Source: Elusimicrobiota bacterium
Lineage (GTDB): Bacteria; Elusimicrobiota; Elusimicrobia; UBA1565; UBA9628
Assembly: GCA_044450965.1 (NCBI GenBank)
Contig: JBIOJO010000011.1
Coordinates: 13,091-77,090, forward strand
DNA: 64,000 nucleotides
Reading direction: 5' to 3'
The position numbers and the translations under genes are program-made. Below, in pieces: positions 6,777 through 56,698 of the stretch; position 1 is the first letter of the stretch, and each line of letters begins with the position of its first letter. The notes below the pieces were generated by a model. The model was given only the letters and a program-made list of their open reading frames with translations. It ran no database searches and was not told the origin of the DNA.

Positions 6777-7146
6777 CTTACCAAAATCGCCTGGCGGGGG
6801 GAGGGGTGTAGCCGCCGTTTTGGTTCTTTGCTTTTAAGCATCGCCCCCCGGTAACGGGCGAATATAAACAGCCTAATTACCCGAGCGTTGCCTTAAAAGC
6901 AGCGAACCAAAAACGGAGGCGTCCGGGCTCCGGTGTTAGTGCTTTTCAGCGGCGGCGGCAGCCTTTTTCTGTTGCTTCATCCAATCCTTGTTGAGAGGAG
7001 ATGCCGAGGGGGGCGGCGGGGGCCGCCATTATCGGCGTGATGTGCCGGGGTCATCAGAGGCATCCATCGGACAAATATAAGCCACTTCCCGATCGCGATG
7101 ATCACTGGGGCACATCAGGCCGATTTTGAAATAAACCGGCCTATCT

Positions 7147-11368: not shown

Positions 11369-13147
11369 CTAAGGGCCATTTTTTAGCGAAACGACAGGAA
11401 AATAAAGTCCTTTGCGTTCCCGCTTCCACCAGGAGCCGTCGGCGCGGCGCTCGTCGGCGGTGGAGAAGCGCGTCGCCCAGACCGTCGCCCGGGCGTACAG
11501 GGGCTTTTCACTTCCCAGCGGCGAGGGCCCCATCAAGCTCTCCACCGGGGAGCCGCCCTGCAGCAGGCGGTAGATCAGGTTGTTCATCCACGGGCTGGGC
11601 GCGCCCAGCGAGGCGAACCACATCTGCCAGTCCAGACGGGGCATGTGCGGCGCCACGAAGGCGGGCGCGCGGCGCGGGTCTCCGGGTTTCCATAGGAACG
11701 GCCATTCGCGCCACTCATGGCCGTCGGCGGAGACCTCCACCATGATCTCGTCGCGGGAGGTCGTCATCACCGCGAACAGCCCGTAGGAATTGATGGAGCG
11801 CAGGGGCTCCGCGAAGGACAGGGCCCGCGGAAATAGGCTTCCCGTCAGCCACAGCGCGGCGAAGGTCGCCAGCGCCCGCGCCCGCCACGGCGAGGCGGCG
11901 CGGGGCACGGCCTTCGGCGCCCAGCGCGCCAGCCACGGGCGGGAGTCGTCCAGCGCGGACAGGCACAGCACGAGGGTCAGCAGGTTGAAGAAGCCGTAGT
12001 TCCCGGTGAGCGCGATCAGGAGCATGAGCGCGGCGATCAGCGCGGCGCCGAAGGCGCGGACGCGGCGCGGGCCCAGCAGCAGCCACGGCGCGCCCAGCTC
12101 CACGGCGAACATCAGCGCGCAGGACAGCTTTTGAACCCCGAGCGGCAGGCGGTTCGCCCACCAGGAGAGAGGCGACGGAAGCGGCTGGCTCCAGTAGTGG
12201 TAGGTCAGCGCGGTGAGATCCCGCCAAGCGGCGTCGCCGCTGAGTAGCTTGACCATCCCCGACTGCAGGATCAGCTTGAAAAGCAGGAGGCGCATCATCC
12301 ACAGAGCGCCGCGCGAGGTCGCCGTCCGCCGCCGCGGGTTCCACGCCCACGGCGCCAGGAAAAGGGCGATGAGTCCCGTCTCCAGGAGCAGGACGTCCCA
12401 CTGGTAGCCCATGAACTGGGAACCGACGCCGCACAACGACAGGTACAGCGCCCAGCACGCCAGCGCGCACGGACCCGCGGCGACGTTCAGGATCAGGCCC
12501 AGCGACGCCAACGCTCCGGCCCAGCACATTCCGACCAGCGCGGCGTCGGACGCGGAGAACCAGGCGAACGTCGGCAGGAGCCAGAAGCGTTCCGGCCCGA
12601 CCTGCTTCGCGGCCGCGTCGAGATACTGCGCCGCCGGAAGAAGGCCGTCATGTCCGATCAGGCCCCGGACCTGCACGCCCAAGGACCAGAAGGCCGCCAG
12701 GTAGCACAGCCCCAGGCCCGCCAGAAGAGCGCGGGAGGTTCCGTCCACGCGCGCGGGTACCGGGGAATCGCCCCAAAATATTTTCGTCAATCGTGAAAAC
12801 GCCGGACGGCGCGCCGCGACGAAGCGGTAGGCGGCTTCGCTGGCCGCGCGGAAGGGGGGCAGGCTCCTGTAGAAGAAAAGGCCCGCCCGGTAGGCGCCGC
12901 CGGCGCGGTCCAGGCTGCGGAAAACCGCCTCGGCGCCGCGGGAGATCGTCCCGTCCGGTTCAACCAGGTGAACGGCTTCGCCCAGGTCGGCGGGAGACAG
13001 CTTCGGGAAGCGCGCGGCGGCCTTCTGCGAGGGGAGGTACTCGACCGCGTCGCCGGTCGCCAGGCGCCAGCGCTCGATCCAGAGCCGGCAGAACCCGCAG
13101 TCGCCGTCGAAGACCAGGACGGGTTTGGAGGGCTTCATGGTTTTCAT
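11369..13147 (-). CDS. Fusion protein: DCC-family thiol-disulfide oxidoreductase (DUF393) N-domain plus lipase-maturation-factor (LMF1)-like polytopic membrane domain
   Basis: N-terminus [12 protein letters not shown] (DCC motif), followed by ~500 aa with many TM helices resembling LMF1-family proteins. Confidence 0.8.
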
Positions 13148-28044: not shown

Positions 28045-30186
28045 ATGAAGAAATTGATCGCGGTCTTGATGCTGGCGGCCGGCGCGCCGTTCTCCTCCGC
28101 GCGGGCGGCGCTGCCGGCCTCCAATCCTTTCGCGGCGCCCAGCGCGCTTTCCGACCAATTCCCGCCGTTCGACAAGATCAAGGACGCGGACTTCGCGCCC
28201 GCGTTCGAGGCCGGCATGGCCGAGCAGCGCCGCGAGGTGGACGCGATCGCGCGCGACGCGGCGGCGCCGTCGTTCGACAACACGATCGTCGCGCTGGAGC
28301 GCTCCGGGCGCCTGCTGTCGCGGACGTCGAAGACCTTCTTCAACCTCAACGCGTCCAACACCGACGACGCGATGCAGGCCCTCGAGCGCGAGCTGGCGCC
28401 GAAGCTGGCGGCGCATCAGGACGCGATCAGCCTGGACGGCGCGCTGTTCGCGCGGATCTCCGCGCTGCACGACAAGAGGGAGTCCCTGGGTCTGGACGCC
28501 GAATCGGCGCAGCTGCTCGAGCGCTACTACAAGCAGTTCGTGCGCGCGGGCGCGCGCCTGTCCGAGGCCGACAAATCCGCGCTGAAGGCGATCAACCAGG
28601 AACTGTCGTCCCTGACCACGCAATTCGAGCAGAACCTGCTGAAGAACGCGAAGAGCGGCGCCGTGGTGGTGGACGACGCCGCGGCGCTGGACGGCCTGAC
28701 CGAGCAGCAGATCGGCGCGGCCGCCGAGGCGGCGAAGGCGCGCGGGTTGGCGGGCCGGTGGGTCATCGGCCTGCAGAACACGACGATCCAGCCGCCGTTG
28801 GAGCAGATGAAGAACCGCGCCCTGCGCGAGCGGATGTACCGCGCCTCGATCGCGCGCGGAATCGGCGGCGAGGCCGACAACACCGCCCTGGTCTCCAAGA
28901 TCGTCGCCCTGCGCGCGCGGCAGGCGGCCCTGCTCGGCTACTCGAGTTACGCCGCCTATTCGCTGGAGGACGAGTCGGCCGGGACTCCGGACGCGGTCAA
29001 CGAGATGCTCTCCCGTTTGGGCAAAGCCGCCCTGCTCAAGGCCAAGGCCGAGGCCGCCGAAATCCAGACGGTCATCGACTCGGAGGCGAAGGCCCGTCAC
29101 GAGAAGCCCTTCAAGCTTCAGCCGTGGGATTGGGCGTACTACGCCTCGCGCGTTCGCAGGGCGCGCTACGACTTCGACGAGGCGCAGGTGAAGCCTTACT
29201 TCGAGCTGAACCGCGTGCTCAACGACGGCGTCTTCTACGCCGCGCACGAGCTGTACGGCATCACCGTGAAGGAGCGCAAGGACCTGCCGGCGTACCGGCC
29301 CGACGTGCGCGTGTTCGAGGTCTTCGAGGCCGACGGATCGTCCATCGGCCTGTTGATCCGCGACGACTTCAAGCGCGACAACAAGAACGGCGGGGCCTGG
29401 ATGGATTCGTTCGTGGACCAGACCGGACTGTTCGATACCAAGCCTGTGATCATCAACAACCTGAACATCCCGAAGCCGGCCGAGGGCCAACCGGTGCTGC
29501 TGACCTTCGACGAGGTCACCACCATGTTCCACGAGTTCGGCCACGCCCTGCACGGCCTGCTCTCTCATGTGAAGTACCCGCTGCTGGCCGGCACCGCGGT
29601 CCCGCCCGACTTCGTGGAGTACCCGTCCCAGTTCAACGAGATGTGGGCGCGCGAGCCCGAAATCCTGGCGCACTTCGCCAAGGACTACCGCACCGGCGAG
29701 CCGATGCCCAAGGCCCTGCTGGACAAGGTGCTCGTCGCGCAGGACTACGGCGAGGGCTACGCCACCAGCGAGTACCTGGCCGCCGCGATGCTGGACCAGT
29801 CGTGGCATCAGATTTCCGCGTCCGGCGCGCCGGCGCCTTCCGGCGTGATGGCGTTCGAGGAGGCGGCCCTGCGCCGGAACGGCATGACCTACGGGCCGGT
29901 GCCGCCGCGCTACCACACGCCGTACTTCGCGCACTCCTTCAGCGGCGGCTACGCGGCCGCCTACTACGCCTACATCTGGAGCGAGGTTCTGGCGCGCGAC
30001 ACCGGCGCCTGGTTCCACTCGCACGGCGGGATCAGCCGCGCCAACGGGGACTTCTTCCGCGCCAAGATCCTCTCCCGCGGCAGAACCGTGGAGCCGGGCG
30101 TCCTGTTTGAGCGGTTCTACGGCCGCAAGCCCGACGTGGAGCCGCTGCTCGAGTACCGCGGCCTGGCGGCGCCGGCCAAGCGCTGA
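28045..30186 (+). CDS. dcp: Peptidyl-dipeptidase Dcp (M3 family zinc metallopeptidase), secreted
   Basis: HEFGH zinc motif; 713 aa; M3A-family-like sequence; signal peptide. Confidence 0.85.
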   Translation: MKKLIAVLMLAAGAPFSSARAALPASNPFAAPSALSDQFPPFDKIKDADFAPAFEAGMAEQRREVDAIARDAAAPSFDNTIVALERSGRLLSRTSKTFFNLNASNTDDAMQALERELAPKLAAHQDAISLDGALFARISALHDKRESLGLDAESAQLLERYYKQFVRAGARLSEADKSALKAINQELSSLTTQFEQNLLKNAKSGAVVVDDAAALDGLTEQQIGAAAEAAKARGLAGRWVIGLQNTTIQPPLEQMKNRALRERMYRASIARGIGGEADNTALVSKIVALRARQAALLGYSSYAAYSLEDESAGTPDAVNEMLSRLGKAALLKAKAEAAEIQTVIDSEAKARHEKPFKLQPWDWAYYASRVRRARYDFDEAQVKPYFELNRVLNDGVFYAAHELYGITVKERKDLPAYRPDVRVFEVFEADGSSIGLLIRDDFKRDNKNGGAWMDSFVDQTGLFDTKPVIINNLNIPKPAEGQPVLLTFDEVTTMFHEFGHALHGLLSHVKYPLLAGTAVPPDFVEYPSQFNEMWAREPEILAHFAKDYRTGEPMPKALLDKVLVAQDYGEGYATSEYLAAAMLDQSWHQISASGAPAPSGVMAFEEAALRRNGMTYGPVPPRYHTPYFAHSFSGGYAAAYYAYIWSEVLARDTGAWFHSHGGISRANGDFFRAKILSRGRTVEPGVLFERFYGRKPDVEPLLEYRGLAAPAKR

Positions 30187-30187
30187 C

Positions 30188-31585
30188 CTATTTCAGGCGC
30201 AGCGACGCCTTGTCGCCGAGGTTCGCGGGAACGAGCTGGGGAGTCTGGTCTCGGTTCTCCCGCCGGGCCGCGTCCTGCACTTTCGGCCGAAGGTCGGCGT
30301 AGAGCTCCTTGATCGTCGCGTCGCCGCCGCGGGCGTTGAGGGCCTTGAGGAAATTGTAGGTGAAGAGCCCGTGCCCCTGGGCCTCGTCCGCTCCGGTGAT
30401 CTCGTCGGCGGCCGACGCGGTGAGGACCACGAGTTTCCCGGCCGCCTCGGCCGAGGTGTCGACCCTCGTGATCAGCGGGCGGGTGCCCTGGGCTATGACG
30501 GAGCGGCCGCCCGCGCCCGAAAAACAGGAGTCGAGGGCCACGATGACACGCGGGGCCTTCAAGGCGTTGAGCTTCTCGTAGAGACGCTTGATGGGGTACG
30601 CCGTGAATTCCAGGGACGAGGCGTCCGCGTCCCAGGGCAGCAGGTAGGCCTCTCCCGTCTTGACGTCGGGCGCTCCGTGGCCGGAGTAGTAGAAGAAGAC
30701 GGTGGATTTCTCGTTGACGTTGCGCGGCAGCCAGGACTCGAGATTCTTGGCCAAGCCGGCGCGGCTGGCCTGCTGGCCGGTCAGGTAGAGGATGTTCCTT
30801 TCCGGGTAGCCCAGCGCGAGCAGGTGCTTCTTCACGGCGGCCGCGTCGCGCTCGGCGAACTGCGCTTCGGGAAGGCCCGAGTACTTCTCGATTCCGACGA
30901 TCAGGGCGAAATCGTTCGGGCGCTCCTCGCCGCTGTAGTTCGGGTTGTCGACGTCGGAATGGATCGTCTTGGGCGCCGGCGGCGCCGGCGCGGGGACTCG
31001 AGCGGTTTCGGCTGGGCCGGTCTTTGACTTGGCGAACTCGGCGAGCTTCGGCGACGAGAGGATTTCCTTAAATAGCTGCGCGCCGGCCTTCCGGGCGGCG
31101 TCCCGCATGTAAGGTTCGGGAGTGAAGCTGACGTAGGCGAGTTGCGACTGATCTCCGGAGCCGCCGACCTCGTCGATCCGCTCACCCGATGGCGTCAGCA
31201 GGATCGCCCGGGCGTCGACGTGCATCGTCATCCCCTTAGTCGTGTAGACGTCGATCACGGCCACCACGTCGGCGCGGGAGGACGCGGAGTCCTGCAGGCT
31301 GGAGATCTTCACCACCGTGCCGAACGCCTTGGCGAACACGCCGCCGATCTCCTCGAAGATCGGGCCGGCGTCGACCTTCGGCGCCATGAACTGCTTCGTC
31401 TGCAGATAGGCAGCGACGTTCCGGCTGTTCTTGGACGGGAGGAGCGCGACCGTCAGGTTCGGGTAGGACGCGCCGGCGGCTTCGGCGATTCCGGCGAAGG
31501 GGTCCTCGCGTACCGGGGGCGCATTGCAGCCGGTCAAGAGCGAGAGGAGGCCCGCGGACAAGGGCAGGAGGAGAATTTTTGTCAT
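30188..31585 (-). CDS. Lipoprotein with C-terminal caspase-like (peptidase C14) domain, paralog A
   Basis: Lipobox LLTGC; catalytic dyad motifs YYSGHG and DSCFSG in the C-terminal ~230 aa; ~200-aa N-domain of unknown function. Confidence 0.8.
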   Translation of the reverse strand: MTKILLLPLSAGLLSLLTGCNAPPVREDPFAGIAEAAGASYPNLTVALLPSKNSRNVAAYLQTKQFMAPKVDAGPIFEEIGGVFAKAFGTVVKISSLQDSASSRADVVAVIDVYTTKGMTMHVDARAILLTPSGERIDEVGGSGDQSQLAYVSFTPEPYMRDAARKAGAQLFKEILSSPKLAEFAKSKTGPAETARVPAPAPPAPKTIHSDVDNPNYSGEERPNDFALIVGIEKYSGLPEAQFAERDAAAVKKHLLALGYPERNILYLTGQQASRAGLAKNLESWLPRNVNEKSTVFFYYSGHGAPDVKTGEAYLLPWDADASSLEFTAYPIKRLYEKLNALKAPRVIVALDSCFSGAGGRSVIAQGTRPLITRVDTSAEAAGKLVVLTASAADEITGADEAQGHGLFTYNFLKALNARGGDATIKELYADLRPKVQDAARRENRDQTPQLVPANLGDKASLRLK

Positions 31586-31661
31586 CCCGTTATTTTATAA
31601 AAAGAAACGCGCTGCGGAGAGGCTTGAAAACCGGCGGCCGGAACATTGCGTAGGCGATGGC

Positions 31662-32993
31662 GTGGGGCATTCATCGCGGATCGCCTTCTTTTCTCGCGCA
31701 AGCTCGGGGCTGCTCTTGGGACTGGCGCTCCTTCCGGCGTGCTCCTCCATTCCCGTCGCTCCTGCCTTGGAGCCGTTGCCGCCCGCGATGTCGACCGTCC
31801 GGCTGTGGGTGAATTCGGTGGATTCGGAGAACGACGTGCAGAAGGTCACCGAAGGGGGGTCCATCGACGCGGAGCTCCTTCCGGCGGTGGCCTCCGCCCT
31901 GAAATCGGCGGGTTTCCGTCTGGTCTTCGATCCGGCGTCCGCGGACGCGGCCGTCGGTCTCACCGCGACGTCCGGGCCGACGAACAGCTCTCCATATCAT
32001 ACGACCCTGATCTTGACCACGCCGCAAGGAGCGCCGGTCGATCATGTCTTTTATAAAGGAGGCGCCATCGGAGTCCCCTGGAGCGGCGCTCCCGAATACG
32101 TGGCGCGGCTGAACAAGCAGATCGCGAGCGGCATCGCACTCAACCTGGTGGACGAGCTGATGAAGTCGACGACGTTCCAGGCCTTCGCCGAGGAGCGCGG
32201 CCAGGGCCGCCCCGGGAGCGTTTCGTCCGACGCGGACAGGCCTCCGTACCGGCGGAGCGAGGTTCCGGGGGCGTTCGCCGTCGTCGTGGGGGTCGAGAAA
32301 TACTCCCACGATCTGCCCGCGGCGCGCTTCGCCGAGCGCGACGCCCAGGCCGTGAAGAACCACCTGATCGCGCTGGGCTACCCGGAGCGCAACATCAAGC
32401 TGCTGACCGGAAGCCGCGCGGTGCGCTCGGCGCTGGCGGCGTACCTGGAAGACTGGCTTCCGCGGAACGTCAAAGAGGACGGCAAGGTCCTCTTCTATTT
32501 CGCGGGGCACGGCGCGCCGGACCCCGGAACGGGACGGGCTTATCTGATGCCCTGGGACGGAGACCCCAATTATTTGGACAAGACCGCGTATCCTGTCGGG
32601 AAGCTCTACGCGCAGTTGAATGCGTTGAAGGCCGATAAGATTCTCGTCGTGCTGGATTCCGGCTTCTCCGGCGCGGGCGGGCGTTCGGTCCTGGCCAAGG
32701 GCGCCCGCCCCCTGGTGTCCCAAACGGACGGCGCGGCCACCCCCGGCGGAAAGCTGGTCCTGTTGGAGGCGGCTTCGTCGAACGAAGGCGCGAGCGCGCT
32801 GGAAGATCAAGGCCACGGACTATTCACTTATTACTTCCTGAAAGGTCTGGGCGCGGAGGCCAAGGACGGGTCCGGAACGATCACGCCTCGCGGCCTCTAC
32901 GACTTCCTCAAGCCCAAGGTCCAGGACGCCGCCGGGCGCCAGAACCGGGCGCAGACCCCCGTTCTGTCGGGGCCCGCGAACGGAGCGCTATGA
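31662..32993 (+). CDS. Lipoprotein with caspase-like C14 domain carrying a Cys-to-Gly substitution in the catalytic motif (DSGFSG), paralog B, likely pseudo-protease
   Basis: GTG start at 31662 gives the lipoprotein signal ...LLLGLALLPAC; the in-frame ATG at 31524 would overlap paralog A. His motif FAGHG is retained; the Cys motif reads gat tcc ggc ttc tcc ggc. Confidence 0.7.
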   Translation: MGHSSRIAFFSRASSGLLLGLALLPACSSIPVAPALEPLPPAMSTVRLWVNSVDSENDVQKVTEGGSIDAELLPAVASALKSAGFRLVFDPASADAAVGLTATSGPTNSSPYHTTLILTTPQGAPVDHVFYKGGAIGVPWSGAPEYVARLNKQIASGIALNLVDELMKSTTFQAFAEERGQGRPGSVSSDADRPPYRRSEVPGAFAVVVGVEKYSHDLPAARFAERDAQAVKNHLIALGYPERNIKLLTGSRAVRSALAAYLEDWLPRNVKEDGKVLFYFAGHGAPDPGTGRAYLMPWDGDPNYLDKTAYPVGKLYAQLNALKADKILVVLDSGFSGAGGRSVLAKGARPLVSQTDGAATPGGKLVLLEAASSNEGASALEDQGHGLFTYYFLKGLGAEAKDGSGTITPRGLYDFLKPKVQDAAGRQNRAQTPVLSGPANGAL

Positions 32994-34315
32994 AACATCT
33001 CGCCGCGGCGTGTTTGGGCATGGCGTTGATTCTGGCCGGCTGCGCCTCCATCCCGGAAGCGCCGACGTTCGATCCGCTGCCGCCGGGCGCGGCGAACCTG
33101 CGGCTGCGCGTCGGCGCGGCCGAGGGCGGGAACAACGCCGGAAAGGCCGGCGGCGGCGGGACGACGATCGAGCAGGAGCTTCTGGCGGCTCTGGGTTCCG
33201 CGTTGAAGGAGGCGGGATTCCAGCTGGTGTACGACGCCCGGACGGCCGACGCCAGCGTGAACGTCGCCGTCGGGTTCCACGGGACTTCGTTCGCCCCGTA
33301 CCGCACGACGTTGATCCTGCGCGGGCCGCGAGGCACGCAGATCGATCAGGTCCAATTCGTGGGCGGGCAGGGGAGCGACTACTCGGCGCTCGCGCGCGGC
33401 ATCGCGTCCAACCTGGTGGACAAGCTTCTGAAGTCTCCCATCTTCATCGCCTACGCGCAGGAGCCCCGTTCCGCCGCGGCCGCGGGAGAGACGGCCGGAG
33501 CGTCGCCCGTTCCGGAGCCCATCAAAAACTTCAGCTCCGACGTGGACGAGCCGCGCTACCGGCTCGCCGAGGACGCGGGGGCCTTCGCCGTCGTCGTCGG
33601 GGTCGAAAAATATTCCAACGACCTTCCGGCGGCGTCGTTCGCGGAGCGCGACGCGCAGGCCGTGAAGAACCATCTGGTCGCGCTGGGCTACCCGGAGCGC
33701 AACATCAAGTTCCTGACCGGAAGCCGGGCGGTCCGTTCGGCGCTGGCGGCGTACCTGGAAGACTGGCTCCCGCGCAACGTCAAAGAGGACGGTAAGGTCT
33801 TTTTTTATTTTTCCGGACATGGCGCGCCGGATCCCGGATCGGGGCAGGCGTATCTGGTGCCTTGGGACGGAGACCCGAATTTCCTGGACAAGACCGCGTA
33901 TCCGTTGAAGAAGCTCTACGCCGATCTGAACGCCTTGAAAGCCAAAAAAATTCTCGTCGCGCTCGATTCCTGCTTCTCCGGCTCGGGCGGCCGCTCGGTC
34001 CTGGCCAAGGGAGCGCGCCCGCTGGTGAGCCGGGTGGATACTTCTGTCGCGCCCGGCGGCAATATGGTCCTCTTCGCGGCCGCGTCGTCGCGGGAAATCA
34101 CGAGCGCCCTGGAAGAACAGGGCCACGGGATCTTCACCTACTACTTCCTAAAAGGCCTGGGCGGGGACGCGAAGGATCGATCCGGCGCGATCACCGCTCA
34201 GGGGCTTTTCGACTATCTCAAGCCCAAGGTCCAGGACGCCGCCAGCCGGCAGAACCGTGACCAGACGCCCGTCCTTGAGGGCGCCGCGGAAAGAGAGATC
34301 ATCCGCCTTAGGTGA
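32990..34315 (+). CDS. Lipoprotein with caspase-like C14 domain, paralog C
   Basis: Lipobox LILAGC; FSGHG and DSCFSG intact; ATGA overlap with paralog B. Confidence 0.8.
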   Translation: MKHLAAACLGMALILAGCASIPEAPTFDPLPPGAANLRLRVGAAEGGNNAGKAGGGGTTIEQELLAALGSALKEAGFQLVYDARTADASVNVAVGFHGTSFAPYRTTLILRGPRGTQIDQVQFVGGQGSDYSALARGIASNLVDKLLKSPIFIAYAQEPRSAAAAGETAGASPVPEPIKNFSSDVDEPRYRLAEDAGAFAVVVGVEKYSNDLPAASFAERDAQAVKNHLVALGYPERNIKFLTGSRAVRSALAAYLEDWLPRNVKEDGKVFFYFSGHGAPDPGSGQAYLVPWDGDPNFLDKTAYPLKKLYADLNALKAKKILVALDSCFSGSGGRSVLAKGARPLVSRVDTSVAPGGNMVLFAAASSREITSALEEQGHGIFTYYFLKGLGGDAKDRSGAITAQGLFDYLKPKVQDAASRQNRDQTPVLEGAAEREIIRLR

Positions 34316-34325
34316 TCATCCTCCT

Positions 34326-35786
34326 ATGAAGATTATCATGATCGTCGTGATTCTGACGGCCGGCTGCGCGACGGGCTCCCGTCCCCCGGCGCCCCAATCG
34401 TTTCCCGCCGCCGCCGGCGCGCCTCTGCCGCTGAGGGTCGGCGTATCGGGCGAGGAGCAGGAACTTCCCATTCTGGACGAGGGTTTCGTCAAAAGCGAAC
34501 CCGGCGAACTCGACCGCTTTTCCCAGATTCTACGCGAGGCGAAAATATTCAAGGAGGTGCGGTATCCGCTGAGCCAGGCCAATCGGTCGGGCGTCGACCT
34601 AGTCCTCTATCCGCGCCTGTCCGCACGCTACGTCGATGACGCCCTCTATATTCCGAAGGCGGCGGTGGTCGCTTTCACTCTGACTCTGACGGCGCCGTTG
34701 TTCCCGGCGCGCGAGGAATTTTCGGCGAAGGCCCGGCTGACCGTCAAGGACGGAGCCGGCGAGGAGCTGAGACAATACAGCGAGTCGCAGGAGGTTCTGA
34801 CCGCTTGGAACTTGGTCTGGGACAGCTGGAATCCGGGGGCGCGTTCCGCCTACGACAACGTCACCTCGCGACTGCTCCAGGACCTGATCAACGACAGGCC
34901 CCTGTTCGAAAGAACGGCGGACCGACTGCTCGCCGCGGAAAGGACCGAGGACGCGAAGAACGGGGGGCAGGCGCGGACGAGCCCGCCGCGTTCGGCCGCG
35001 TCGTATTCCTCCGATGTGGACGTTCCGACCCTGCGCTCGCCCGAGCGTCCGGACGACTTCGCGCTGGTCGTCGGCATCGAGAAGTATTCCAACGACCTTC
35101 CGGACGCCCAATTCGCCGAACGCGACGCCGAGGCGGTGCGAAGCCACCTTCTCGCTCTTGGAGTTCCCGAGCGGAACATGAAGTTCCTGACCGGAGCACG
35201 GGCCACCAAGGGAAACCTGGAGGCGTATCTCGAGGATTGGCTTCCCCGCAACGCGAAGGAAGACGGACGCGTGTTCTTCTATTTCTCGGGTCACGGAGCG
35301 CCCGAGGCGGATTCGGGGCGGGCCTATCTGGTTCCCTCGGACGGCGACCCGAAGTTCCTCGATAAGACCTCTTTCCCGCTCAAGAAGCTTTACGCCGATC
35401 TCAACGCGCTGAAATCAAAACGGGTCATCGTCGCCTTGGACTCCTGCTTTTCGGGCTCGGGCGGCCGCTCGGTCCTGGCCAAGGGCGCGCGTCCGCTGGT
35501 GAACCGGGTGGATACTTCGGTCGCGTCCGGCGGCAAGCTGATCCTCTTCAGCGCGGCCTCGGCCGACGAGACGAGCGGCACGCTGGAGGAGCAGGGCCAC
35601 GGCGCGTTCACTTACTACTTCCTAAAAGGGATCGACGGCGGAGCGAAGGACCAATCAGGAAGTATCACTCTGCGCGGGATTTTCGACTATCTCAAGCCCA
35701 AGGTCCAGGACGCCGCCAGCCGGCAGAACCGCGACCAGACGCCCGTCCTTGAGGGCGCCTCCGCGGGCGAGGTCCTCCGGCGTTAG
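34326..35786 (+). CDS. Lipoprotein with caspase-like C14 domain, paralog D
   Basis: Start trimmed to MKIIMIVVILTAGC (lipobox); FSGHG and DSCFSG intact. The 3' 100 nt are ~95% identical to paralog C. Confidence 0.8.
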   Translation: MKIIMIVVILTAGCATGSRPPAPQSFPAAAGAPLPLRVGVSGEEQELPILDEGFVKSEPGELDRFSQILREAKIFKEVRYPLSQANRSGVDLVLYPRLSARYVDDALYIPKAAVVAFTLTLTAPLFPAREEFSAKARLTVKDGAGEELRQYSESQEVLTAWNLVWDSWNPGARSAYDNVTSRLLQDLINDRPLFERTADRLLAAERTEDAKNGGQARTSPPRSAASYSSDVDVPTLRSPERPDDFALVVGIEKYSNDLPDAQFAERDAEAVRSHLLALGVPERNMKFLTGARATKGNLEAYLEDWLPRNAKEDGRVFFYFSGHGAPEADSGRAYLVPSDGDPKFLDKTSFPLKKLYADLNALKSKRVIVALDSCFSGSGGRSVLAKGARPLVNRVDTSVASGGKLILFSAASADETSGTLEEQGHGAFTYYFLKGIDGGAKDQSGSITLRGIFDYLKPKVQDAASRQNRDQTPVLEGASAGEVLRR

Positions 35787-38239
35787 CGGCGCTGGGCCGC
35801 CGCGGCGGGGACGCGCCAGCGGATCAGCGCGACCTTGAGCGCGTCGTTGACGATCAGGCAGGCGGCCGCCGAATACGCGAAGATCATGAGCGTCAGCGGC
35901 CAAGGCAGCGGCAGGAGCCCCGGCAGCCCCACCCGGGTCAGAACGGTGCCGGTGAGCGCGTCCGCCGCGAGCGCCGCCAGAAGAGTCTTGCTCGGCATCG
36001 TCGACCAGAACCAGCGCCGCTCCCGGGCGGACACGATGGAAAAGGCCGCGAAGTAGAGCAACGTCAGGAAGCTGAAGGTGTGGAGGGCGTGCTCGTTGGA
36101 CGCCAGGCCGAAGCGCGTCCAGGCGAACCAGAGGAAGAAAAGCGACTCGGCGACCATGGCCGCGCCCAGCGCGGCCGACACCGCGATGAAGCCGCCGATA
36201 TTCCAGGTCTCCGGATTTTGGGACGGACGCACGCGGTCGGTGGCTAGCGCGATCTTGGCGAAGTCCGTCATGAAGGTCAGCAGCAGCATCGCGAAAGCGG
36301 AGACGACGAATTTCCCGGTCGCCGCGAAGGCTATGGCCACGAAGGCCGCCTTCAGGATCGTGCGGCTGATCTTGTTGATGATCCAGGTCAGGATGCGCTG
36401 GTAGATGGTGCGTCCCTGCTCGACCAAGGTCACGATGTTCGTCAGCCCCGGCTCCGTCAGAACCACGCTGGCGGCGCCTTTGGCGACGTCGGTCGCGGAA
36501 CTGACGGCGATGCCCACCTCGGCCTGGCGCAGAGCGGGGGCGTCGTTGACGCCGTCGCCCGTCATGCCGGTCACGTGCCCGGCGGCCTGAAGGCGCTGCA
36601 CGACCGTGTACTTGTCCTCGGGGTACACTTCCGCGAGGCCGTCGGTTCCCGCCAACAGGTCGAAGGCTTCGCCGCCGGCTTGAGAGCCGGCGGCCTTGAG
36701 GTCCGCGACGCGCCGGATTTTCGTCAGGCCGACCCCGCGCCCTATTTCGCCGGCCACCGCCAGCGCGTCGCCGGTGAGCATCTTGACGGAAACGCCCAGC
36801 CCGCGCAGTTCGGCGATGAGTTGCTTGGCGTCCGGCCGCGGCGGATCATACAGGGTCACTAGGCCGAGAATCGCGGGCGCGCCCGTCTCGGGGCCTTGCG
36901 CCACCGCTAAAGTTCGATAGCCCTTCAGGGCCGATTCTCTCACGCGCGCTTCCAGGGCTTCGATCGCCGCAGGTTGAAGCCCGCAGGCTTGCGCGATGGC
37001 GCTCACGGCGCCCTTCATCACGCGCAACCGCCGCCCGTTCTGCTCGATGACGGCTTCCGTTCTCCGGTTCGTCGCGTCGAACGGCGCGAAGGAGACGGGC
37101 GTGGAGGCGGGCGCGCCGTTGAAGACATTCCGTTCTTTCGCGGCGGCGAGAAACGCCAGATCGATGGGGTCCTGATTGGATTCTTGGGAGGCGAGCGCCC
37201 CGGCGGCCAAGACGTCGGCCTCCGTCGCCTTCTCCAGTGGGATGACGCCGGTCACGGCCAGCCGGTTCATGGTGATGGTGCCGGTCTTGTCCACGCACAG
37301 CACGTCCATGGTCGCGGCGTCCTCGGCGGCGCTCAGGCGCGTGACCAGCACGCCCCGCTTGGCCAGCTCCTTGGAGCCGAGGGCCATGCTGACGGTGAAC
37401 ATGACGGGAAGGGCGACGGGCACGGCGCTCATCAGGAGGACGAGCATGAGCGAGACCATCTCCAGCATCGGAACCCCGCGCAGCAGGGACAGGACGACCA
37501 CCACGCTGAGAAGCGCGCCGACGATGACGAAAAGCCAGCGGACCACCTTGGCGACCACAGCCTCGATGTGCAGCTTCGGGCGCGCCTGCTGCACCAGCTC
37601 CGTGGTGCGGCCGAAGTAGGTTTTCGCGCCCGTAAGCAGGACCACGGCGTTGCCCTCGCCGCGGCGAACGATGGAGCCCGAGGAGAGCACTCCCCCGGCG
37701 ATCTTGTCGGCTTCCTTGGACTCGCCGGTGAGGGCCGACTGGTCGAGGCTCAGCTCTCCCGCCAGGAGCTTCAGGTCCGCCGGGACGATGTCTCCGGGCC
37801 GGACGCGGACGATGTCGCCGGGAACCAGCTCCCGGGCGGGAAGGACCCGCCAAGCCGAGTCGCGCAGGACGCGCGCGCTGACCTGCAGGCGCCGCCGCAG
37901 CGCCTCGACCACGCCCGCGGCCCGCCTTTCCTGCATGAAGCTCAGCACGGCGTTGACCACCAACAGGGCGCTGACCACCGCCAGGTCGGAGTATTTCCGG
38001 AGGACGGCGGACAGGATCATGATGAGCTCGAGCATCCACGCCGAGACGCCCCAGAATTTCGCGAGGAATCGAAGCAGAGGGTGCTCCTTCTCCTCCGCCA
38101 CCTCGTTGTAGCCGTGCGCCTTCCGCCGGAAGTCCGCTTCGGCGCTCGTGAGGCCGACCTGGGGGTTTACCTTGAGAGCGGCGAGGGTTTCGGGAACCGA
38201 GGCGGTCGCGACGTCGGGGGGCGCGGTGTTTTTAGACAC
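35783..38239 (-). CDS. P-type ATPase, type IIIA-like (plasma-membrane H+ or Mg2+-transporting family)
   Basis: DKTGTIT phosphorylation motif and TGDGVNDAPAL hinge; 818 aa; 10 TM-like segments. Confidence 0.9.
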   Translation of the reverse strand: MSKNTAPPDVATASVPETLAALKVNPQVGLTSAEADFRRKAHGYNEVAEEKEHPLLRFLAKFWGVSAWMLELIMILSAVLRKYSDLAVVSALLVVNAVLSFMQERRAAGVVEALRRRLQVSARVLRDSAWRVLPARELVPGDIVRVRPGDIVPADLKLLAGELSLDQSALTGESKEADKIAGGVLSSGSIVRRGEGNAVVLLTGAKTYFGRTTELVQQARPKLHIEAVVAKVVRWLFVIVGALLSVVVVLSLLRGVPMLEMVSLMLVLLMSAVPVALPVMFTVSMALGSKELAKRGVLVTRLSAAEDAATMDVLCVDKTGTITMNRLAVTGVIPLEKATEADVLAAGALASQESNQDPIDLAFLAAAKERNVFNGAPASTPVSFAPFDATNRRTEAVIEQNGRRLRVMKGAVSAIAQACGLQPAAIEALEARVRESALKGYRTLAVAQGPETGAPAILGLVTLYDPPRPDAKQLIAELRGLGVSVKMLTGDALAVAGEIGRGVGLTKIRRVADLKAAGSQAGGEAFDLLAGTDGLAEVYPEDKYTVVQRLQAAGHVTGMTGDGVNDAPALRQAEVGIAVSSATDVAKGAASVVLTEPGLTNIVTLVEQGRTIYQRILTWIINKISRTILKAAFVAIAFAATGKFVVSAFAMLLLTFMTDFAKIALATDRVRPSQNPETWNIGGFIAVSAALGAAMVAESLFFLWFAWTRFGLASNEHALHTFSFLTLLYFAAFSIVSARERRWFWSTMPSKTLLAALAADALTGTVLTRVGLPGLLPLPWPLTLMIFAYSAAACLIVNDALKVALIRWRVPAAAAQRR

Positions 38240-41681: not shown

Positions 41682-43349
41682 CTAGCGACGGCGCAGCAAT
41701 GCTTCGATGCCCGGCGTGGGAGCCAGATCGAACGCGGACTGCCCTTTGGCGTTGACCGCGTTCAGGTCGGCTCCGTGATCGATGAGGAGCTTGATCATGC
41801 CGGCATGTCCATCAACCGCAGCATACATGAGCGGCGTCGTGCCCACGAGGTAGAACGTTTTACCGCTCGTAACCGTCCAGTGATCATCTACGTACGTATT
41901 CGGGACGGGTTCGTTGACGTTGACCCCGGCCTTGATGAGCGCCGTCGCCGTCTCGAAGTTGTCGGCCCAGATCGCCGCGCGCAAGTCTTCAACGCCAAAA
42001 TGAAGGCCGTGCTGCGGCCCATTCTCAAGTATTCGTTTAGCAAGGGCCTGGTTTCCGGACCGGAGCGCGTGTTGCAGGGCCTGCCGGTCGCCCCAGAGGA
42101 GCTGCTCGATGGTTTGGTGTTCAGGGCCGGTCAACGCAACGCCCTTCAGCGGGCGAGGTGTCAGCGTGGGAGAGGGAGGATGGCTCAGCAGCTCCAAGAT
42201 TTCGCCGCGCGCCTTGTCGTGACTCTTGTCATCGCCCCAAGAGTACGAGCCGCCGGCGATGATGAGGTTGCTCAGACGTCTGTTACGAGCCCAATCCGCG
42301 GCAGTGTGATCGTCGTAATCCTTCAGGGAGGCATCGGCGCCCGCCTCGAGGAGGAGCTGGGCGGTCGCGACATCTCCGCGCGCCGCAGTTATCATGAGCG
42401 GCGTCAGCGCCCCGTGATAGGCGTAGTGCGAGTCTTCCCGTTTGTCGGAGAGCTTGCGCGTGCCCGGGCCGCGCGTATTGACGTCGGCGCCGTTCTCGAT
42501 GAGCAGCTTGACGATCTCCGTCCGGCCGAGGTCGATGGCCTTCAGCAGCGCGTTATTCATCGTTGATTTGTCGGCCGCGACGCCGTACTTGAGCATCGCG
42601 CTCACGCACGCCACAATGTCCCGACCTATCGCGTCGTCCAGAAGCCTGACGCGGTCTTGATCAAGAAGGATGGACGTCACGTCCTCCGTTTCCGTGATCT
42701 TCTGCGCCAGTTCTCGCGTGGATGCGCGTCCGGAGTTCAGTTCCAATTTGATTGAAGCGACGGTCTGGGCCAGTTCGCCGTGAGCGAGGTTGTCGGAGGC
42801 TGGAGCTCTGTTGATTCTCTGCTCGAGAGCGTTCAGGCGCTGCATCAGGGCCTTGATATCCTCCGTGGCCCCGGCCAACCCGACCTCCACCTTCTCGACT
42901 CGCCGGGTCAGGCTGTCGGCCAGAGCCTGCTTGAAGGCGGCGTCGGATTGGACGAACTTGAGGACGCGCTCTTTCTCGATGCGGACCATGGCGTAGCTCA
43001 TGCCGTTGCAGTTCTTGTACTCGAAATCGTCCTGTTCCCAGCCGGCGAGCAGGGAGCTCTGGGGCAAGACGTTCCCGATGCCTTCAGCGACCCGAGCTCT
43101 GTCGCGGCCCGGGCCGGCGATGCGCTTGATCTGCTCCAGATTCCAGAGCTGCGCATCTCCGGTCACTTGTTGGCTCAGGCTTCGCAGGGCTGCTTCGCGA
43201 GCCTCCTGGGCGTCGGCGGCCTTTCCGGCGCCGTAATACCAATCTCGGTCGCGAGGCAGGGAAGTGTAAAAGACGGGAGGAGTGCAGTCCTTCGAATACG
43301 CGGAGGGAGCGGCCGCCGACAGAAGGCTCACGGCGAGAATCAGACGCAT
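41682..43349 (-). CDS. Secreted ankyrin-repeat protein with N-terminal coiled-coil region
   Basis: Start trimmed to MRLILAVSLLSAAAPSAYS (signal peptide). Multiple ANK repeats (TPLMxAAxxGxxxxVxLLLxxGAD). Confidence 0.8.
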   Translation of the reverse strand: MRLILAVSLLSAAAPSAYSKDCTPPVFYTSLPRDRDWYYGAGKAADAQEAREAALRSLSQQVTGDAQLWNLEQIKRIAGPGRDRARVAEGIGNVLPQSSLLAGWEQDDFEYKNCNGMSYAMVRIEKERVLKFVQSDAAFKQALADSLTRRVEKVEVGLAGATEDIKALMQRLNALEQRINRAPASDNLAHGELAQTVASIKLELNSGRASTRELAQKITETEDVTSILLDQDRVRLLDDAIGRDIVACVSAMLKYGVAADKSTMNNALLKAIDLGRTEIVKLLIENGADVNTRGPGTRKLSDKREDSHYAYHGALTPLMITAARGDVATAQLLLEAGADASLKDYDDHTAADWARNRRLSNLIIAGGSYSWGDDKSHDKARGEILELLSHPPSPTLTPRPLKGVALTGPEHQTIEQLLWGDRQALQHALRSGNQALAKRILENGPQHGLHFGVEDLRAAIWADNFETATALIKAGVNVNEPVPNTYVDDHWTVTSGKTFYLVGTTPLMYAAVDGHAGMIKLLIDHGADLNAVNAKGQSAFDLAPTPGIEALLRRR

Positions 43350-43414
43350 CCGAATGATTGTACTAAATGAAAAATCAGAGGGGCCCTGCCGCCGGTGCGC
43401 GCCGTCCTGTGTGG

Positions 43415-43807
43415 TCAGCCGTGACTTTTCAAGACGGGATAAAGCTCCAAATCCCGTCGGCAGTTGGTGCAGACCTCGGCGATCGGCCATTGCGCCGGCC
43501 GCGGCTTCAAGACATTGGGTTTCTTGCAGCCGGGGCAAGGGACCGAACCGGACACGATGAGTCCTCGGACCGCGGCCGTCTTCGCCGAGAAATAAATCCC
43601 CAGGCACAAGAAAAGCGGCACCAAGACGAAATGGATCAGCGGCAATAAGACGCAGAAGAGGGCGATGCCCCAGAAAATCCCCAGCTTCGGCAGCATGTTC
43701 CGGAGCCGTTCCGAAGTCCGGAGCAGGCGAATCTGGGCGGCGCCGGAAGCCGGGAGCAACCCAAAGACTTTGGCTTCGACTCCGACTTCCGCGATCTCAG
43801 AGCGCAT
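43415..43807 (-). CDS. Small membrane protein with C-terminal Cys4 zinc-ribbon
   Basis: Two hydrophobic helices followed by CPGC...CTNC. Start uncertain. Confidence 0.4.
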   Translation of the reverse strand: MRSEIAEVGVEAKVFGLLPASGAAQIRLLRTSERLRNMLPKLGIFWGIALFCVLLPLIHFVLVPLFLCLGIYFSAKTAAVRGLIVSGSVPCPGCKKPNVLKPRPAQWPIAEVCTNCRRDLELYPVLKSHG

Positions 43808-54142: not shown

Positions 54143-54362
54143 GCGGGCGCTGCGCAAGGAAGACCAGGAGGCGTTCGACGCGCTGTGGCGCTTCGCGCGC
54201 TACCACGCGGCGCCGGCGTCCATGGCCAGCCGGCCCATGCCGTTCGAGGCGGCGCTGATGGCGATGCTGGTGGCCGTGGAGCGGCAGCTCCTGGAGATGG
54301 AGCGGCTGGAGAAGAAGCGGAGAGCGGATGCCGACGGAAAAAACGGAGGGGTGGATCTTTGA
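54075..54362 (+). CDS. Small hypothetical protein (95 aa) between the ImuA-like gene and polB
   Basis: ORF overlapping both neighbours; helical, charged. Start uncertain. Confidence 0.4.
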   Translation: MGRTLPTIVQTLQAEEEAWKLFRRALRKEDQEAFDALWRFARYHAAPASMASRPMPFEAALMAMLVAVERQLLEMERLEKKRRADADGKNGGVDL

Positions 54363-56571
54363 CGCGTATCCCGAGGAAGAGGGGATGCGGGTCTGGATCG
54401 TGGAGCGCGGCGGCGGGCGGCGCTCCGTGCTGGACGCGTGGCGCCCCGCGTTCCATGTGGGCGGGGATTGCTCGACGCTGAAGAAGGCTCTGCGTCTGCT
54501 GGCGCGCCTTCCGTACCGCGCCGAGACGGGGATGGTCGAGAAAAAAGAGCTGTTCCGCGGGGAAATCCTGCGCGTTCTGGAAATCCGCGTGCCCGTGTTG
54601 GAGCGCGATCCATTGGTCAAGCGGCTGGCCGGAATGGAACTGCCGCTGTACGACGCGGACATGCATTTGGTGCAGGCCTACCATTATGACCGCGGCCACT
54701 TCCCCTTGGCGCTGTGCGGCTTTGAAATCGACGGCGATCGCATGGTCTCCCATGAATTGCGCGACGATCCATGGGCGGTCGATTACGAGCTCCCGCCGCT
54801 GACGACGATGCATTTGTCGTTGACGGGCTCGGAAATAGTCGGCGCGCTGGATCCAAACCATTCTGCGCGAGGAAGAATCGTGCTGTCGATGGACGGCCGC
54901 GCCTACGAGCTCGAGGGCCGCATGGAAGAACAGCTCGAGACCGTGTCTTGTCGTTTGAAAAAATGGGATCCAGATGTCATCACCACGGACTGGGGCGACA
55001 GCGTTCTGATGCCGGAGCTGGACCGGCTCTCGAAAGAACTCCGGGTGCCGTTGAATTTCTCGCGCGAGACGGGACGCGAGATGGCGGGCAAAAAAGAACG
55101 GACCTTTTTTTCGTATGGCCGCGTCGTTTACCAGGGCGGGGCGCGTTATCTGTTCGGGCGCTGGCACCTGGACGTCAAAAACAGCTTCATGATCCAACAA
55201 ACGGACACGGCGGGGCTATTCGAGATCGCGCGGATCGCGAAGATCCCGGTGCAGCGGGCGGCGCGCTGCACGATCGGGACGAGCCTCAGCTCCATGCAGA
55301 TGGCGTGGGCGTGGACGAACGGGATCTTGATTCCGATGGAGAAGCAGCAGGCGGAGGATTTCCGGCCGGCGACGGACCTGCTCATCGCGGACAAGGGCGG
55401 GCTGGTGTATGAGCCGGAGGTGGGCTGGCACCGCGAGGTGGCCGAGTACGACTTCACCTCCATGTATCCGGAGATGATGGTCCAGCGCAACATCTCCCCG
55501 GAGACGGTGAACTGCGGGTGCTGTCCGGAGAATGTGGTGCCGGAGATCGGTCATCACCTCTGTACGAAGCGGCGGGGTCTGGTGCCGTCGGTGCTGGCGC
55601 CCATTCTGGAGAAGCGGGCGAAGTACAAGGCGCTGTACAAGAAAAAAGGCCCGGGCTGGGAGGTTTACAAGGCGCGGGCCGACGCGCACAAGTGGACCTT
55701 GGTGTGCTGCTTCGGCTACCTGGGATTTAAAAACGCGCGCTTCGGGAAGATCGAGGCGCACGAGTGCGTGACGGCGTGGGGGCGGGAGGTGCTGCTGCGC
55801 GCGAAGGACGCGGTGGAGAGGCGGGGCTATCATCTTCTGCACGCGTTGGTGGACTCCATTTGGATCCGGATCGGGCCGGGCGCGGATTTGGAGGAGCTGC
55901 GGCTGGCGATCGAGAAGGAGGCGGAGTGTCCGCTGGCGCTGGAAGGGGTGTACGAGTGGATCCGTTATTGTCCGTCGAAGCAGGACGCGCTGTCCGGGGT
56001 GCCGGGGCGCTACTTCGGGGCGTTCAAGACGGGGGAGTTGAAGATCCGCGGCATCGCCTCAAGACGGCGCGACACGCCGAAGCTGTTTAAGAACATGCAG
56101 GGCGAACTGCTTTCGAAGCTGGCGGGAATTTCACCCGGCGCGGACCTGAAGACCTTGGTTCCCGCCTTGCTGGACATCGTGGAGGATTATCGCCTGCGCG
56201 TGCGCGAGGGGCAGGTCACGGCGGAGGAACTCGCGATTGCGTTCCATTTGTCCCGAGCGCCGGAAGAATATATGCACGACACGGTGTCGTCCACGGCGGC
56301 CAAGCAGCTGGCCGCGTCCGGGGTGACCTTGCACGTGGGGGAGACGGTGAGGTATGTGATCACCAACGCCCGCGACAAGGTGAAGGACTGGCGGTCCAAG
56401 CCATTGGCGCTGATGGAGAACGGGCTGGAGTACGACGTGAAGAAATATTTGGAGCTGCTGGAGCGCGCGGCGCTGGAAATTCTCGACGGGTTGGTGCCAG
56501 CGCCCCCGCCGGCGAAAAAGAACGCGGCGCTCGCGATCCAGGCGTTGGAGTTGCCTTTGATCTGGGGATGA
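54328..56571 (+). CDS. Family-B DNA polymerase, exonuclease motifs replaced (predicted exo-deficient), degenerate motif C
   Basis: Motif A YDFTSMYPEMM; K-x-Y-like GRYFGAF. Motif C reads LVDS instead of DTDS. The Exo I region FDIE aligns to MHLS. N-terminal domain resembles archaeal PolB N-termini. Confidence 0.85.
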   Translation: MPTEKTEGWIFDAYPEEEGMRVWIVERGGGRRSVLDAWRPAFHVGGDCSTLKKALRLLARLPYRAETGMVEKKELFRGEILRVLEIRVPVLERDPLVKRLAGMELPLYDADMHLVQAYHYDRGHFPLALCGFEIDGDRMVSHELRDDPWAVDYELPPLTTMHLSLTGSEIVGALDPNHSARGRIVLSMDGRAYELEGRMEEQLETVSCRLKKWDPDVITTDWGDSVLMPELDRLSKELRVPLNFSRETGREMAGKKERTFFSYGRVVYQGGARYLFGRWHLDVKNSFMIQQTDTAGLFEIARIAKIPVQRAARCTIGTSLSSMQMAWAWTNGILIPMEKQQAEDFRPATDLLIADKGGLVYEPEVGWHREVAEYDFTSMYPEMMVQRNISPETVNCGCCPENVVPEIGHHLCTKRRGLVPSVLAPILEKRAKYKALYKKKGPGWEVYKARADAHKWTLVCCFGYLGFKNARFGKIEAHECVTAWGREVLLRAKDAVERRGYHLLHALVDSIWIRIGPGADLEELRLAIEKEAECPLALEGVYEWIRYCPSKQDALSGVPGRYFGAFKTGELKIRGIASRRRDTPKLFKNMQGELLSKLAGISPGADLKTLVPALLDIVEDYRLRVREGQVTAEELAIAFHLSRAPEEYMHDTVSSTAAKQLAASGVTLHVGETVRYVITNARDKVKDWRSKPLALMENGLEYDVKKYLELLERAALEILDGLVPAPPPAKKNAALAIQALELPLIWG

Positions 56572-56623: not shown

Positions 56624-56698
56624 GGGCCGTTAGCTCAGCGGTAGAGCGATCCCCTTACACGGGAAAGGTCGGGGGTTCGATCCCCTCACGGCCCACCA
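56624..56698 (+). tRNA. tRNA-Val (anticodon TAC), CCA encoded
   Basis: Manual cloverleaf: acceptor GGGCCGT/ACGGCCC, D-arm GCTC...GAGC, anticodon loop CUUACAC, T-loop TTCGATC, 3' ACCA. Confidence 0.85.

Follow-up and report, generated by a model that had tools for sequence, protein, structure and literature searches.

Most discussion of caspase homologues in prokaryotes treats them as proteases of the cytoplasm with roles in cell death, stress or defence. The closest described systems, the orthocaspases and the bacterial metacaspase-like proteins of peptidase family C14, have a C14 domain with an SGHG / D-x-C-x-SG dyad, an acidic residue two positions before the catalytic cysteine (Cys-2), which is compatible with a basic P1 residue, and variable accessory domains (PMC6426788, PMC3501461). 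A survey of prokaryotic caspase homologues published in 2012 placed the Elusimicrobia among the phyla without metacaspases, and about the N-terminal helices of some bacterial metacaspases it said only that they "might be signal peptides" (PMC3501461). Here we describe four paralogous genes of such proteins, A to D, at positions 30188-35786 of a stretch of 64,000 nucleotides from the metagenome-assembled genome of an uncultured Elusimicrobiota bacterium (contig JBIOJO010000011.1 of assembly GCA_044450965.1; this whole stretch is called the window below, and all positions are counted from its first letter). The reading that we favour, and which we consider moderately probable, is that A-D are stand-alone, envelope-anchored C14 endopeptidases that would be targeted by their N-terminal modules and would probably be specific for Arg/Lys, B being a pseudo-protease. 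The four proteins share with the orthocaspases the features listed above, B excepted for its nucleophile; they differ from them in that they are predicted to be exported lipoproteins located in the envelope, in that their accessory module is N-terminal, and in that sequence searches link them to none of the solved C14 structures.

Open reading frame calls and tblastn confirm the arrangement proposed in the first-pass annotation, with four paralogous genes, of which one lies on the minus strand and the other three on the plus strand. Gene A (30188-31585, minus strand) codes for 465 residues, with the caspase domain at 30191-30958 and an A-type N-domain at about 30959-31525. On the plus strand, gene B (31662-32993) codes for 443 residues from GTG 31662 (N-domain 31740-32225, caspase domain 32226-32990), gene C (32990-34315) for 441 residues (N-domain 33041-33535, caspase domain 33536-34312) and gene D (34326-35786) for 486 residues (D-type N-domain 34365-35009, caspase domain 35010-35783). 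The start chosen by NCBI for B is TTG 31716 (425 residues), which would shorten the signal; GTG 31662 is the best start. All four reading frames are intact, and tblastn searches with A, C and D find exactly these four copies of the family in the window. The three plus-strand genes had been described as coupled by ATGA overlaps: this is so for B and C, whose stop and start overlap as ATGA at 32990-32993, but not for C and D, since C ends at 34315 and the ATG of D is at 34326, which leaves a gap of 10 nucleotides. The proposed domain organisation is found in each protein: a hydrophobic N-terminus that runs up to a cysteine, an N-domain of about 160-215 residues (about 200 had been announced) and a C-terminal caspase domain.

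The assignment to family C14 stands: profile and fold evidence agree, and the findings that the first-pass annotation had named as refuting it (no support for a C14 fold, or lipobox cysteines outside a signal-peptide context) are not those obtained here. The gathering threshold of Pfam Peptidase_C14 (PF00656) is 21.4 bits, and all four proteins exceed it, with 65.6 bits for A, 35.3 for B (the lowest), 50.9 for C and 57.5 for D. The caspase fold is supported by a model for one of the four proteins, C: the AlphaFold2 model of the full-length protein has a mean predicted local distance difference test score (pLDDT) of 78.6, mostly above 85 in the caspase core. When this model is compared to the PDB using Foldseek, the top match is the paracaspase MALT1 (3v4o; E 4e-10, probability 1.0, TM(target) 0.67), followed by caspases 3, 6, 7, 8 and 9, CED-3 and the yeast metacaspase Yca1; 183 PDB chains match at E <= 0.001. 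A, C and D are thus members of peptidase family C14 by hidden Markov model and dyad, with a fold that is predicted from the model of C. The resemblance to MALT1 and the animal caspases consists in the caspase-hemoglobinase fold of this model; sequence identity is 10-16%, and MALT1 and the caspases, unlike the proteins described here, are cytosolic and have death and Ig domains. The fold match provides no evidence that the regulation is the same. Sequence searches of the PDB with D, with the caspase domain of C or with the family profile return no significant C14 structure, the best match being Yca1 (E 0.17); this lack of a recognisable solved relative leads us to regard the family as remote within C14. 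Among curated subfamilies, NCBIfam NF047832 ("caspase, EACC1-associated type") comes nearest; the four proteins score 78.5-87.1 bits for it, below the 140-bit cut-off, and the only PADLOC model that matches all four is the generic "caspase" model (E ~1e-16). As far as these profiles tell, A-D are outside the EACC1-associated subfamily and the PADLOC systems, and their N-domains are in no named sequence family.

The predicted catalytic dyad (SGHG...DSCFSG) consists of His303 (30677-30679) and Cys354 (30524-30526) in A, on the minus strand, and, on the plus strand, of His277 (33818-33820) and Cys328 (33971-33973) in C and of His323 (35292-35294) and Cys374 (35445-35447) in D. Every residue that is invariant in the family is kept in A, C and D, and these three are predicted to be active proteases. 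A-D all have two Asp residues that do not vary, one at Cys-2 (LDSCFSG) and one in AERDA, which a weak alignment (E 0.17) pairs with that of the Yca1 motif CINDA. Orthocaspases are reported to cut after basic residues (PMC6426788) and, on the basis of this preference and of the two acidic positions, we infer that the A, C and D proteases are probably specific for Arg/Lys. The loop that follows the nucleophile, GGRSVxxxGxRPLV, is strongly conserved and is modelled with low confidence in C; its invariant Arg residues would be candidate autoprocessing sites. We also observe that most members of the family end in a conserved basic tail, VRLR, IRLR or LRLK (for example at 34301-34312), which forms the last beta-strand in the model. 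No such tail is present in B, which ends in ...NGAL.

The family extends well beyond this locus. The scan, which covered one genome per species, gave at least 544 confirmed relative stretches; at the level of loci, the counts given below refer to 78 related loci and 105 family genes, 102 of which have complete N-termini. His and Cys are both kept in 96 of these 102 relatives. Among the 76 best loci, 73 are labelled Elusimicrobia or Elusimicrobiota, and several metagenome-assembled genomes have 4-6 loci each. We regard the family as an Elusimicrobiota-specific, highly expanded set of C14 endopeptidases that are predicted to be exported, nearly all relatives being found in that phylum.

The presence of a His-Cys dyad had been claimed for all four proteins, which is correct for A, C and D, but not for B. 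The catalytic position of B, residue 334, is a Gly (AGHG...DSGFSG): the codon is GGC (32661-32663) where C and D have TGC, a single T-to-G change, and His283 is kept. Because the nucleophile is lost, B is predicted to be a pseudo-protease, that is, an inactive C14 homologue. The lipobox of B is LLPAC (31728-31742), where its orthologues have LVAGC, LIAGC or LLAGC; the orthologue in one related locus (L001) has kept both the Cys and a canonical LVAGC lipobox, and the ratio of nonsynonymous to synonymous divergence (dN/dS, or omega) between B and this orthologue is 0.12-0.13. It may be that B is decaying, or that it is a non-catalytic partner of C, to which it is translationally coupled. Independent losses of the dyad are seen in other members, with N/G (P0009), H/G (L023), Y/G (L055) and Y/C (L029) at the His/Cys positions. 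Pseudo-orthocaspases, in which Tyr and Ser replace His and Cys, are discussed for photosynthetic bacteria (PMC6426788). B is similar to these in being an intact C14 paralogue, minus one catalytic residue, under purifying selection relative to its orthologue; it differs from them in that it keeps the His, has Gly instead of Cys, is predicted to be exported and is coupled to a paralogue that is predicted to be active.

Regarding export, a lipobox signal had been proposed for each of the four proteins. The PROSITE pattern PS51257 consists of a lipobox, [LIVMFWSTAG](2)-[LIVMFYSTAGCQ]-[AGS]-C, after an uncharged stretch, with the Cys at residues 15-35 and a K or R within the first 7 residues. The proposal holds in full for A (MTKILLLPLSAGLLSLLTG followed by Cys20, 31526-31528, minus strand) and for C (MKHLAAACLGMALILAG followed by Cys18, 33041-33043, plus strand). 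The short signal of D (MKIIMIVVILTAG followed by Cys14, 34365-34367, plus strand) matches the pattern, with its Cys one residue short of the 15-35 window. The signal-like N-terminus of B (LLPA followed by Cys27, 31740-31742, plus strand) fails, with a Pro at position -2. A lipobox-type signal is present in at least 74 of the 102 relatives with complete N-termini, the majority of the rest having a signal peptide of the ordinary kind. The organism is a diderm, since a TonB-dependent receptor is encoded in the window, 4.7 kb upstream of the cluster. The residues at position +2 of A, B, C and D are N, S, A and A, respectively, and because none is Asp, the rule established for E. coli suggests that the anchoring membrane is probably the outer membrane.

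The N-domains are 18-46% identical in amino acids among A-D, versus 59-78% for the caspase domains, which agrees with the earlier remark that the former have diverged and the latter are similar. Pfam assigns the N-domains to no family: A and D have no match, and the best match of C is DUF4136 (E 0.065; 14 bits versus a cut-off of 32.8 bits). The model of the N-domain of C (pLDDT 81, predicted template modelling score 0.78) matches the outer-membrane-lipoprotein fold of CsgG, PelC, LptE and TolB-N when it is compared with solved members. The figures listed for these comparisons are 10.8 for CsgG, 10.1 for XCC0632/DUF330, 9.7 for PelC, 9.6 for the flagellar LPHT-ring protein, 9.1 for TraT, 8.4 for LptE and also for HpaA, 8.0 for the N-domain of TolB, 7.0 for LpoB, 6.8 for PqiC and 6.4 for DUF4136. 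The N-domain of C differs from CsgG, PelC, LptE, TolB-N, LpoB, TraT and DUF4136 by its sequence (8-16% identity, 22% with LpoB) and by its fusion to a protease, and the ring formation or transport known for CsgG, PelC and TraT cannot be deduced for it from the fold. Such a fold serves as a scaffold or for docking, and is not known to sense ligands.

The first-pass annotation had considered the N-domains of B and C as related, which they are, and those of A and D as distinct. On the contrary, hhalign detects a remote homology between the A-type (25 sequences) and the B/C-type N-domains (96%, E 2.5e-9, over the C-terminal half), and aligns the D-type, enriched with the ten D-type homologues found in a search with full-length D, with the A-type (70%, E 4e-5, 136 columns, with the same order of elements). 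The N-domain of D is probably also a homologue of the A and B/C types and, because hhalign joins A to B/C and D to A, the four N-domains have most likely diverged from a single lipoprotein module, rather than being unrelated. It is important to note that the N-domain of D used alone as a query gives zero matches although an identical protein (P0024) is in the database, so that this null result does not indicate a biological absence. At residues ~99-124 of D (~34620-34700), a hydrophobic segment of some 26 residues (YIPKAAVVAFTLTLTAPLFPAREE) is inserted; it is conserved in the D-type homologues, is not found in the A or B/C types, and may be a membrane-inserting loop. In a set of 1.84 billion representative proteins, the profile of the B/C-type N-domain has no more than 19 matches. 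Among them are short lipoprotein sequences (157-236 residues), apparently stand-alone and devoid of a caspase domain, one fusion with TPR repeats, and one with a more divergent caspase; P0128, P0130-P0133, P0137 and P0138 are among the proteins with this module. The short caspase-free and TPR-fused occurrences, and the total of 19, lead us to regard the B/C-type module as independent and rare.

Other modules are found at the same position elsewhere in the family. Clustering gives 29 ankyrin, 25 A-type, 5 B/C-type and 3 D-type N-modules, and about twenty smaller classes; Sel1, PEGA and CARDB are also detected using Pfam. N-modules are swapped between family members on one conserved protease. 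Orthologues of the A, B, C and D types are all present in other genomes. Two to four copies lie within 20 kb in 20 of the 78 loci (L040 has four in tandem), and the N-types differ in 25 of the 35 co-located gene pairs. We note separately that a 641-residue ankyrin-repeat protein is encoded at 41682-43607 (minus strand), 6 kb from the cluster; its longest open reading frame shows no obvious signal peptide. In other genomes, no N-module of this family of caspases is as common as ankyrin repeats.

The array is an old one. The caspase domains are 80% identical in nucleotides between B and C and 75% between C and D, versus 62-68% for the other pairs. That of C (33536-34312) has a mosaic structure, with 86-92% identity to B (32226-32990) over the 5' half and with two ~90-nucleotide patches further 3' that share 91-92% identity with D (35010-35783). 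The identity of 85-95% that had been reported for the 3' ends of C and D is therefore true of these two patches only, and not of the caspase domain as a whole (75%). At variable sites, the longest identical stretches are longer than those in permuted data (p ~0.002 for C-D, ~0.015 for B-C), which suggests short gene-conversion tracts between the neighbouring paralogues B and C, and C and D. Paralogues have a synonymous divergence (dS) of 0.6-1.2, and ankyrin-type members of other genomes resemble the caspase domain of C (74-76% identity) roughly as much as B (78%) or D (75%) do; both observations argue for an old array and lead us to reject a recent tandem duplication. Since L001 holds an orthologue of B (74% identity in the N-domain) followed by an orthologue of C (77%), the B-C pair predates the split of these genomes. 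In our view, the cluster is made of old paralogues among which short tracts have occasionally been converted. When paralogues are compared, omega is 0.5-0.9 in the N-domains versus 0.2-0.3 in the caspase domains. Caspase domains are under purifying selection overall (omega 0.1-0.3; 0.13 for B and its orthologue), and omega is ~0.11-0.12 in the N-domain classes for the pairs of B and C orthologues.

The flanking genes are those recognised earlier, as judged from Pfam. Gene A is convergent with a gene for an exported M3 peptidase (28045-30186, plus strand, 713 residues; Peptidase_M3, E 1.4e-116; signal-peptidase-I-type signal), with 1 bp between the end of the latter and the stop of A, and D is convergent with a gene for a P-type cation ATPase (35783-38239, minus strand, 818 residues; E1-E2_ATPase, Hydrolase and Cation_ATPase_N), their ends overlapping by 4 bp. 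The comparison of neighbourhoods that had been suggested with the first-pass annotation covers the 78 loci and shows no conserved partner gene: the most frequent neighbour cluster occurs in at most 7 of them, an M3 peptidase gene lies within about 10 kb of a family caspase in 3 (within ~0.6 kb in L041 and ~2.4 kb in L057) and is not a conserved partner, and an ATPase gene is beside family members in none. Given this lack of conserved neighbours, we reject the reading of the cluster as an operon or "system". In L001, a gene for a DUF4384 protein (3276-4091) is directly downstream of the pair of B and C orthologues; there is none in the cluster of the window.

In the mechanism that we propose, a Sec/lipoprotein signal would export each protein and its Cys would be acylated. 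The N-terminal alpha/beta module of about 150-200 residues, which in C has a predicted CsgG/PelC/LptE/TolB-N fold, would be joined by a Pro/Ala-rich linker to the caspase-fold domain with its His-Cys dyad. The enzyme would be kept by its lipid anchor and its N-module at a membrane, probably the outer one, on the side of the periplasm; the N-module would dock or oligomerise it at particular sites or partners of the envelope, and the protease domain would then make limited cuts after Arg/Lys in exported or envelope proteins. One catalytic unit would be steered to different targets by the N-module that it carries, which is of type A, B/C or D in this cluster and ankyrin or another in other loci. 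The role is probably the cutting of cell-envelope proteins rather than the triggering of cell death.

Several points weigh against this proposal. The profile search of the PDB remains at E > 0.1 and no C14 chain is among the single-sequence matches; the S1 pocket is therefore assigned from the positions of motifs. The fold of the N-domain is supported by a model for C, and the homology of the D-type has an hhalign probability of 70%. Docking or oligomerisation would be a generic function of a modelled fold that is common to proteins of very different function. The lipoproteins may be exposed at the surface, as the sorting rules of Elusimicrobiota could differ from those of E. coli. Last, a nutritional role fits most of the data equally well. 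A bolder version of the proposal is that N-modules resembling CsgG, PelC or TraT form rings or heteromers under the outer membrane and activate the tethered caspases by induced proximity, the dead and coupled B being a cFLIP-like regulator of C, and the swapped N-modules making distinct envelope "platforms" for site-specific proteolysis. We think that this is very unlikely; if true, it would be an envelope analogue of the apoptosome or of the CBM signalosome.

The nutritional explanation, which we hold to be less probable but still a substantial rival, is that the proteins are bulk proteases anchored at the surface or in the periplasm and acting on proteins from the environment, much as gingipains or C11 lipoproteins do, whose peptide products are degraded further by exported oligopeptidases such as M3, for uptake. 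The export and lipid-anchoring signals, the size of a family that has no dedicated partner genes, the M3 gene that adjoins A (and those of L041 and L057) and the nearby TonB-dependent receptor gene are all consistent with it, and other exported proteases of clan CD do have nutritional roles. The gingipains (C25) and the C11 lipoproteins of Bacteroidota, for instance, are clan-CD enzymes that are exported, tethered to the membrane or the surface, and specific for Arg/Lys; they differ from A-D in that they belong to families C25 and C11, not C14, and in their phyla, accessory domains and secretion routes. However, the association with M3 is limited to 3 of the 78 loci, bulk degradation would leave unexplained the many conserved and distinct N-modules (ankyrin, Sel1, CsgG-like fold, TPR) and, to our knowledge, the C14 enzymes characterised so far make limited, site-specific cuts. 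We prefer targeted proteolysis to nutrition because the protease evolves slowly (omega 0.1-0.3) and is combined with many conserved docking or interaction modules.

The first-pass annotation had favoured a sensor-diversified system, in which variable N-domains would sense ligands or invaders and activate the caspase in conflict or signalling, as in NLR-like, EACC1 or gasdermin-type defence. The higher omega of the N-domains between paralogues (0.5-0.9), the identity of the nearest curated subfamily and the match of all four proteins to the generic PADLOC caspase model point in this direction. On the contrary, the cut-off is far above the NCBIfam scores (78-87 bits), the N-classes are old, conserved across genomes under purifying selection and not hypervariable (the omega of the B and C orthologue pairs being ~0.11-0.12), the modelled N-domain of C has a structural lipoprotein fold, and the signals would place the proteins outside the cytoplasm, whereas the caspase-type defence systems that we know of act in the cytoplasm. 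No system-specific PADLOC model for a known anti-phage system matches, and no cognate partner gene, whether NTPase, effector, gasdermin or EACC, is conserved nearby in the 78 loci. We consider this explanation improbable. The least probable, in our opinion, is that of a non-enzymatic or decaying array, a set of duplication relics in which B at least, and possibly others, would be drifting to pseudogenes, and whose proteins may serve only as structural lipoproteins. It would account for the lost nucleophile and non-canonical lipobox of B and for the dyad losses in L023, L055, L029 and P0009, but not for the four intact reading frames, for the dyad kept in 96 of 102 relatives, for purifying selection on the caspase domains, including that of B, nor for the conservation of all invariant family residues in A, C and D.

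Genes A and B are divergent and separated by 76 bp (31586-31661), AT-rich as read from the sequence, which presumably hold promoters. The promoter scan finds no match to the sigma-70 consensus in this region, and the scan for promoters and terminators over 29900-36100 gives none above the shuffled expectation; Rfam and tRNA scans give no match inside the four-gene cluster. The rest of the window is an ordinary chromosomal set of genes (arginine biosynthesis, DnaJ, the TonB-dependent receptor, kinases). A few regions stand out. A low-GC island (48%, versus ~67% for the window) at 7000-8000 contains an open reading frame of 291 codons and atypical composition (7147-8022, minus strand); this frame and the 5' end annotated for a Ser/Thr kinase gene (7700-10039) overlap. 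The frame may have been horizontally acquired, or the start of the kinase may be mis-set. A homologue of family-B DNA polymerases (54328-56571, 747 residues), in a region of unusually strong GC skew (0.16-0.21), directly precedes a tRNA-Val (56624-56698), and this stretch may be the remnant of a mobile element. A protein of 592 residues (11369-13147, minus strand) combines a DCC1-like thiol-disulfide oxidoreductase domain with LMF1 and LMF1_C domains; the lipase maturation factor family is known best from eukaryotes.

GenBank labels B, C and D, on a contig of 81 kb, as "caspase domain-containing proteins", so that a generic annotation pre-exists. Since the proteins are already annotated as "caspase family protein", the novelty lies in the architecture and the biology, and is not that of a new fold or family; no mechanistic surprise is demonstrated. 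We found no description of this family in the literature on exported or lipoprotein orthocaspases or on Elusimicrobia caspases, which is in line with the earlier statement that membrane-tethered caspase arrays are poorly characterised. A whole phylum has dozens of conserved copies, per set of genomes, of caspases that are predicted to be exported and lipid-anchored, in which one protease is combined with varied docking modules. The N-terminal lipoprotein module defined here is absent from Pfam and has a predicted CsgG/PelC/LptE-like fold. C and B, predicted to be active and inactive, respectively, would be a natural pair of paralogues for asking whether bacterial pseudo-caspases regulate active partners. 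The family points to a role of the caspase fold in the biology of the cell envelope, be it in the maturation of proteins, their turnover or the harvesting of nutrients.

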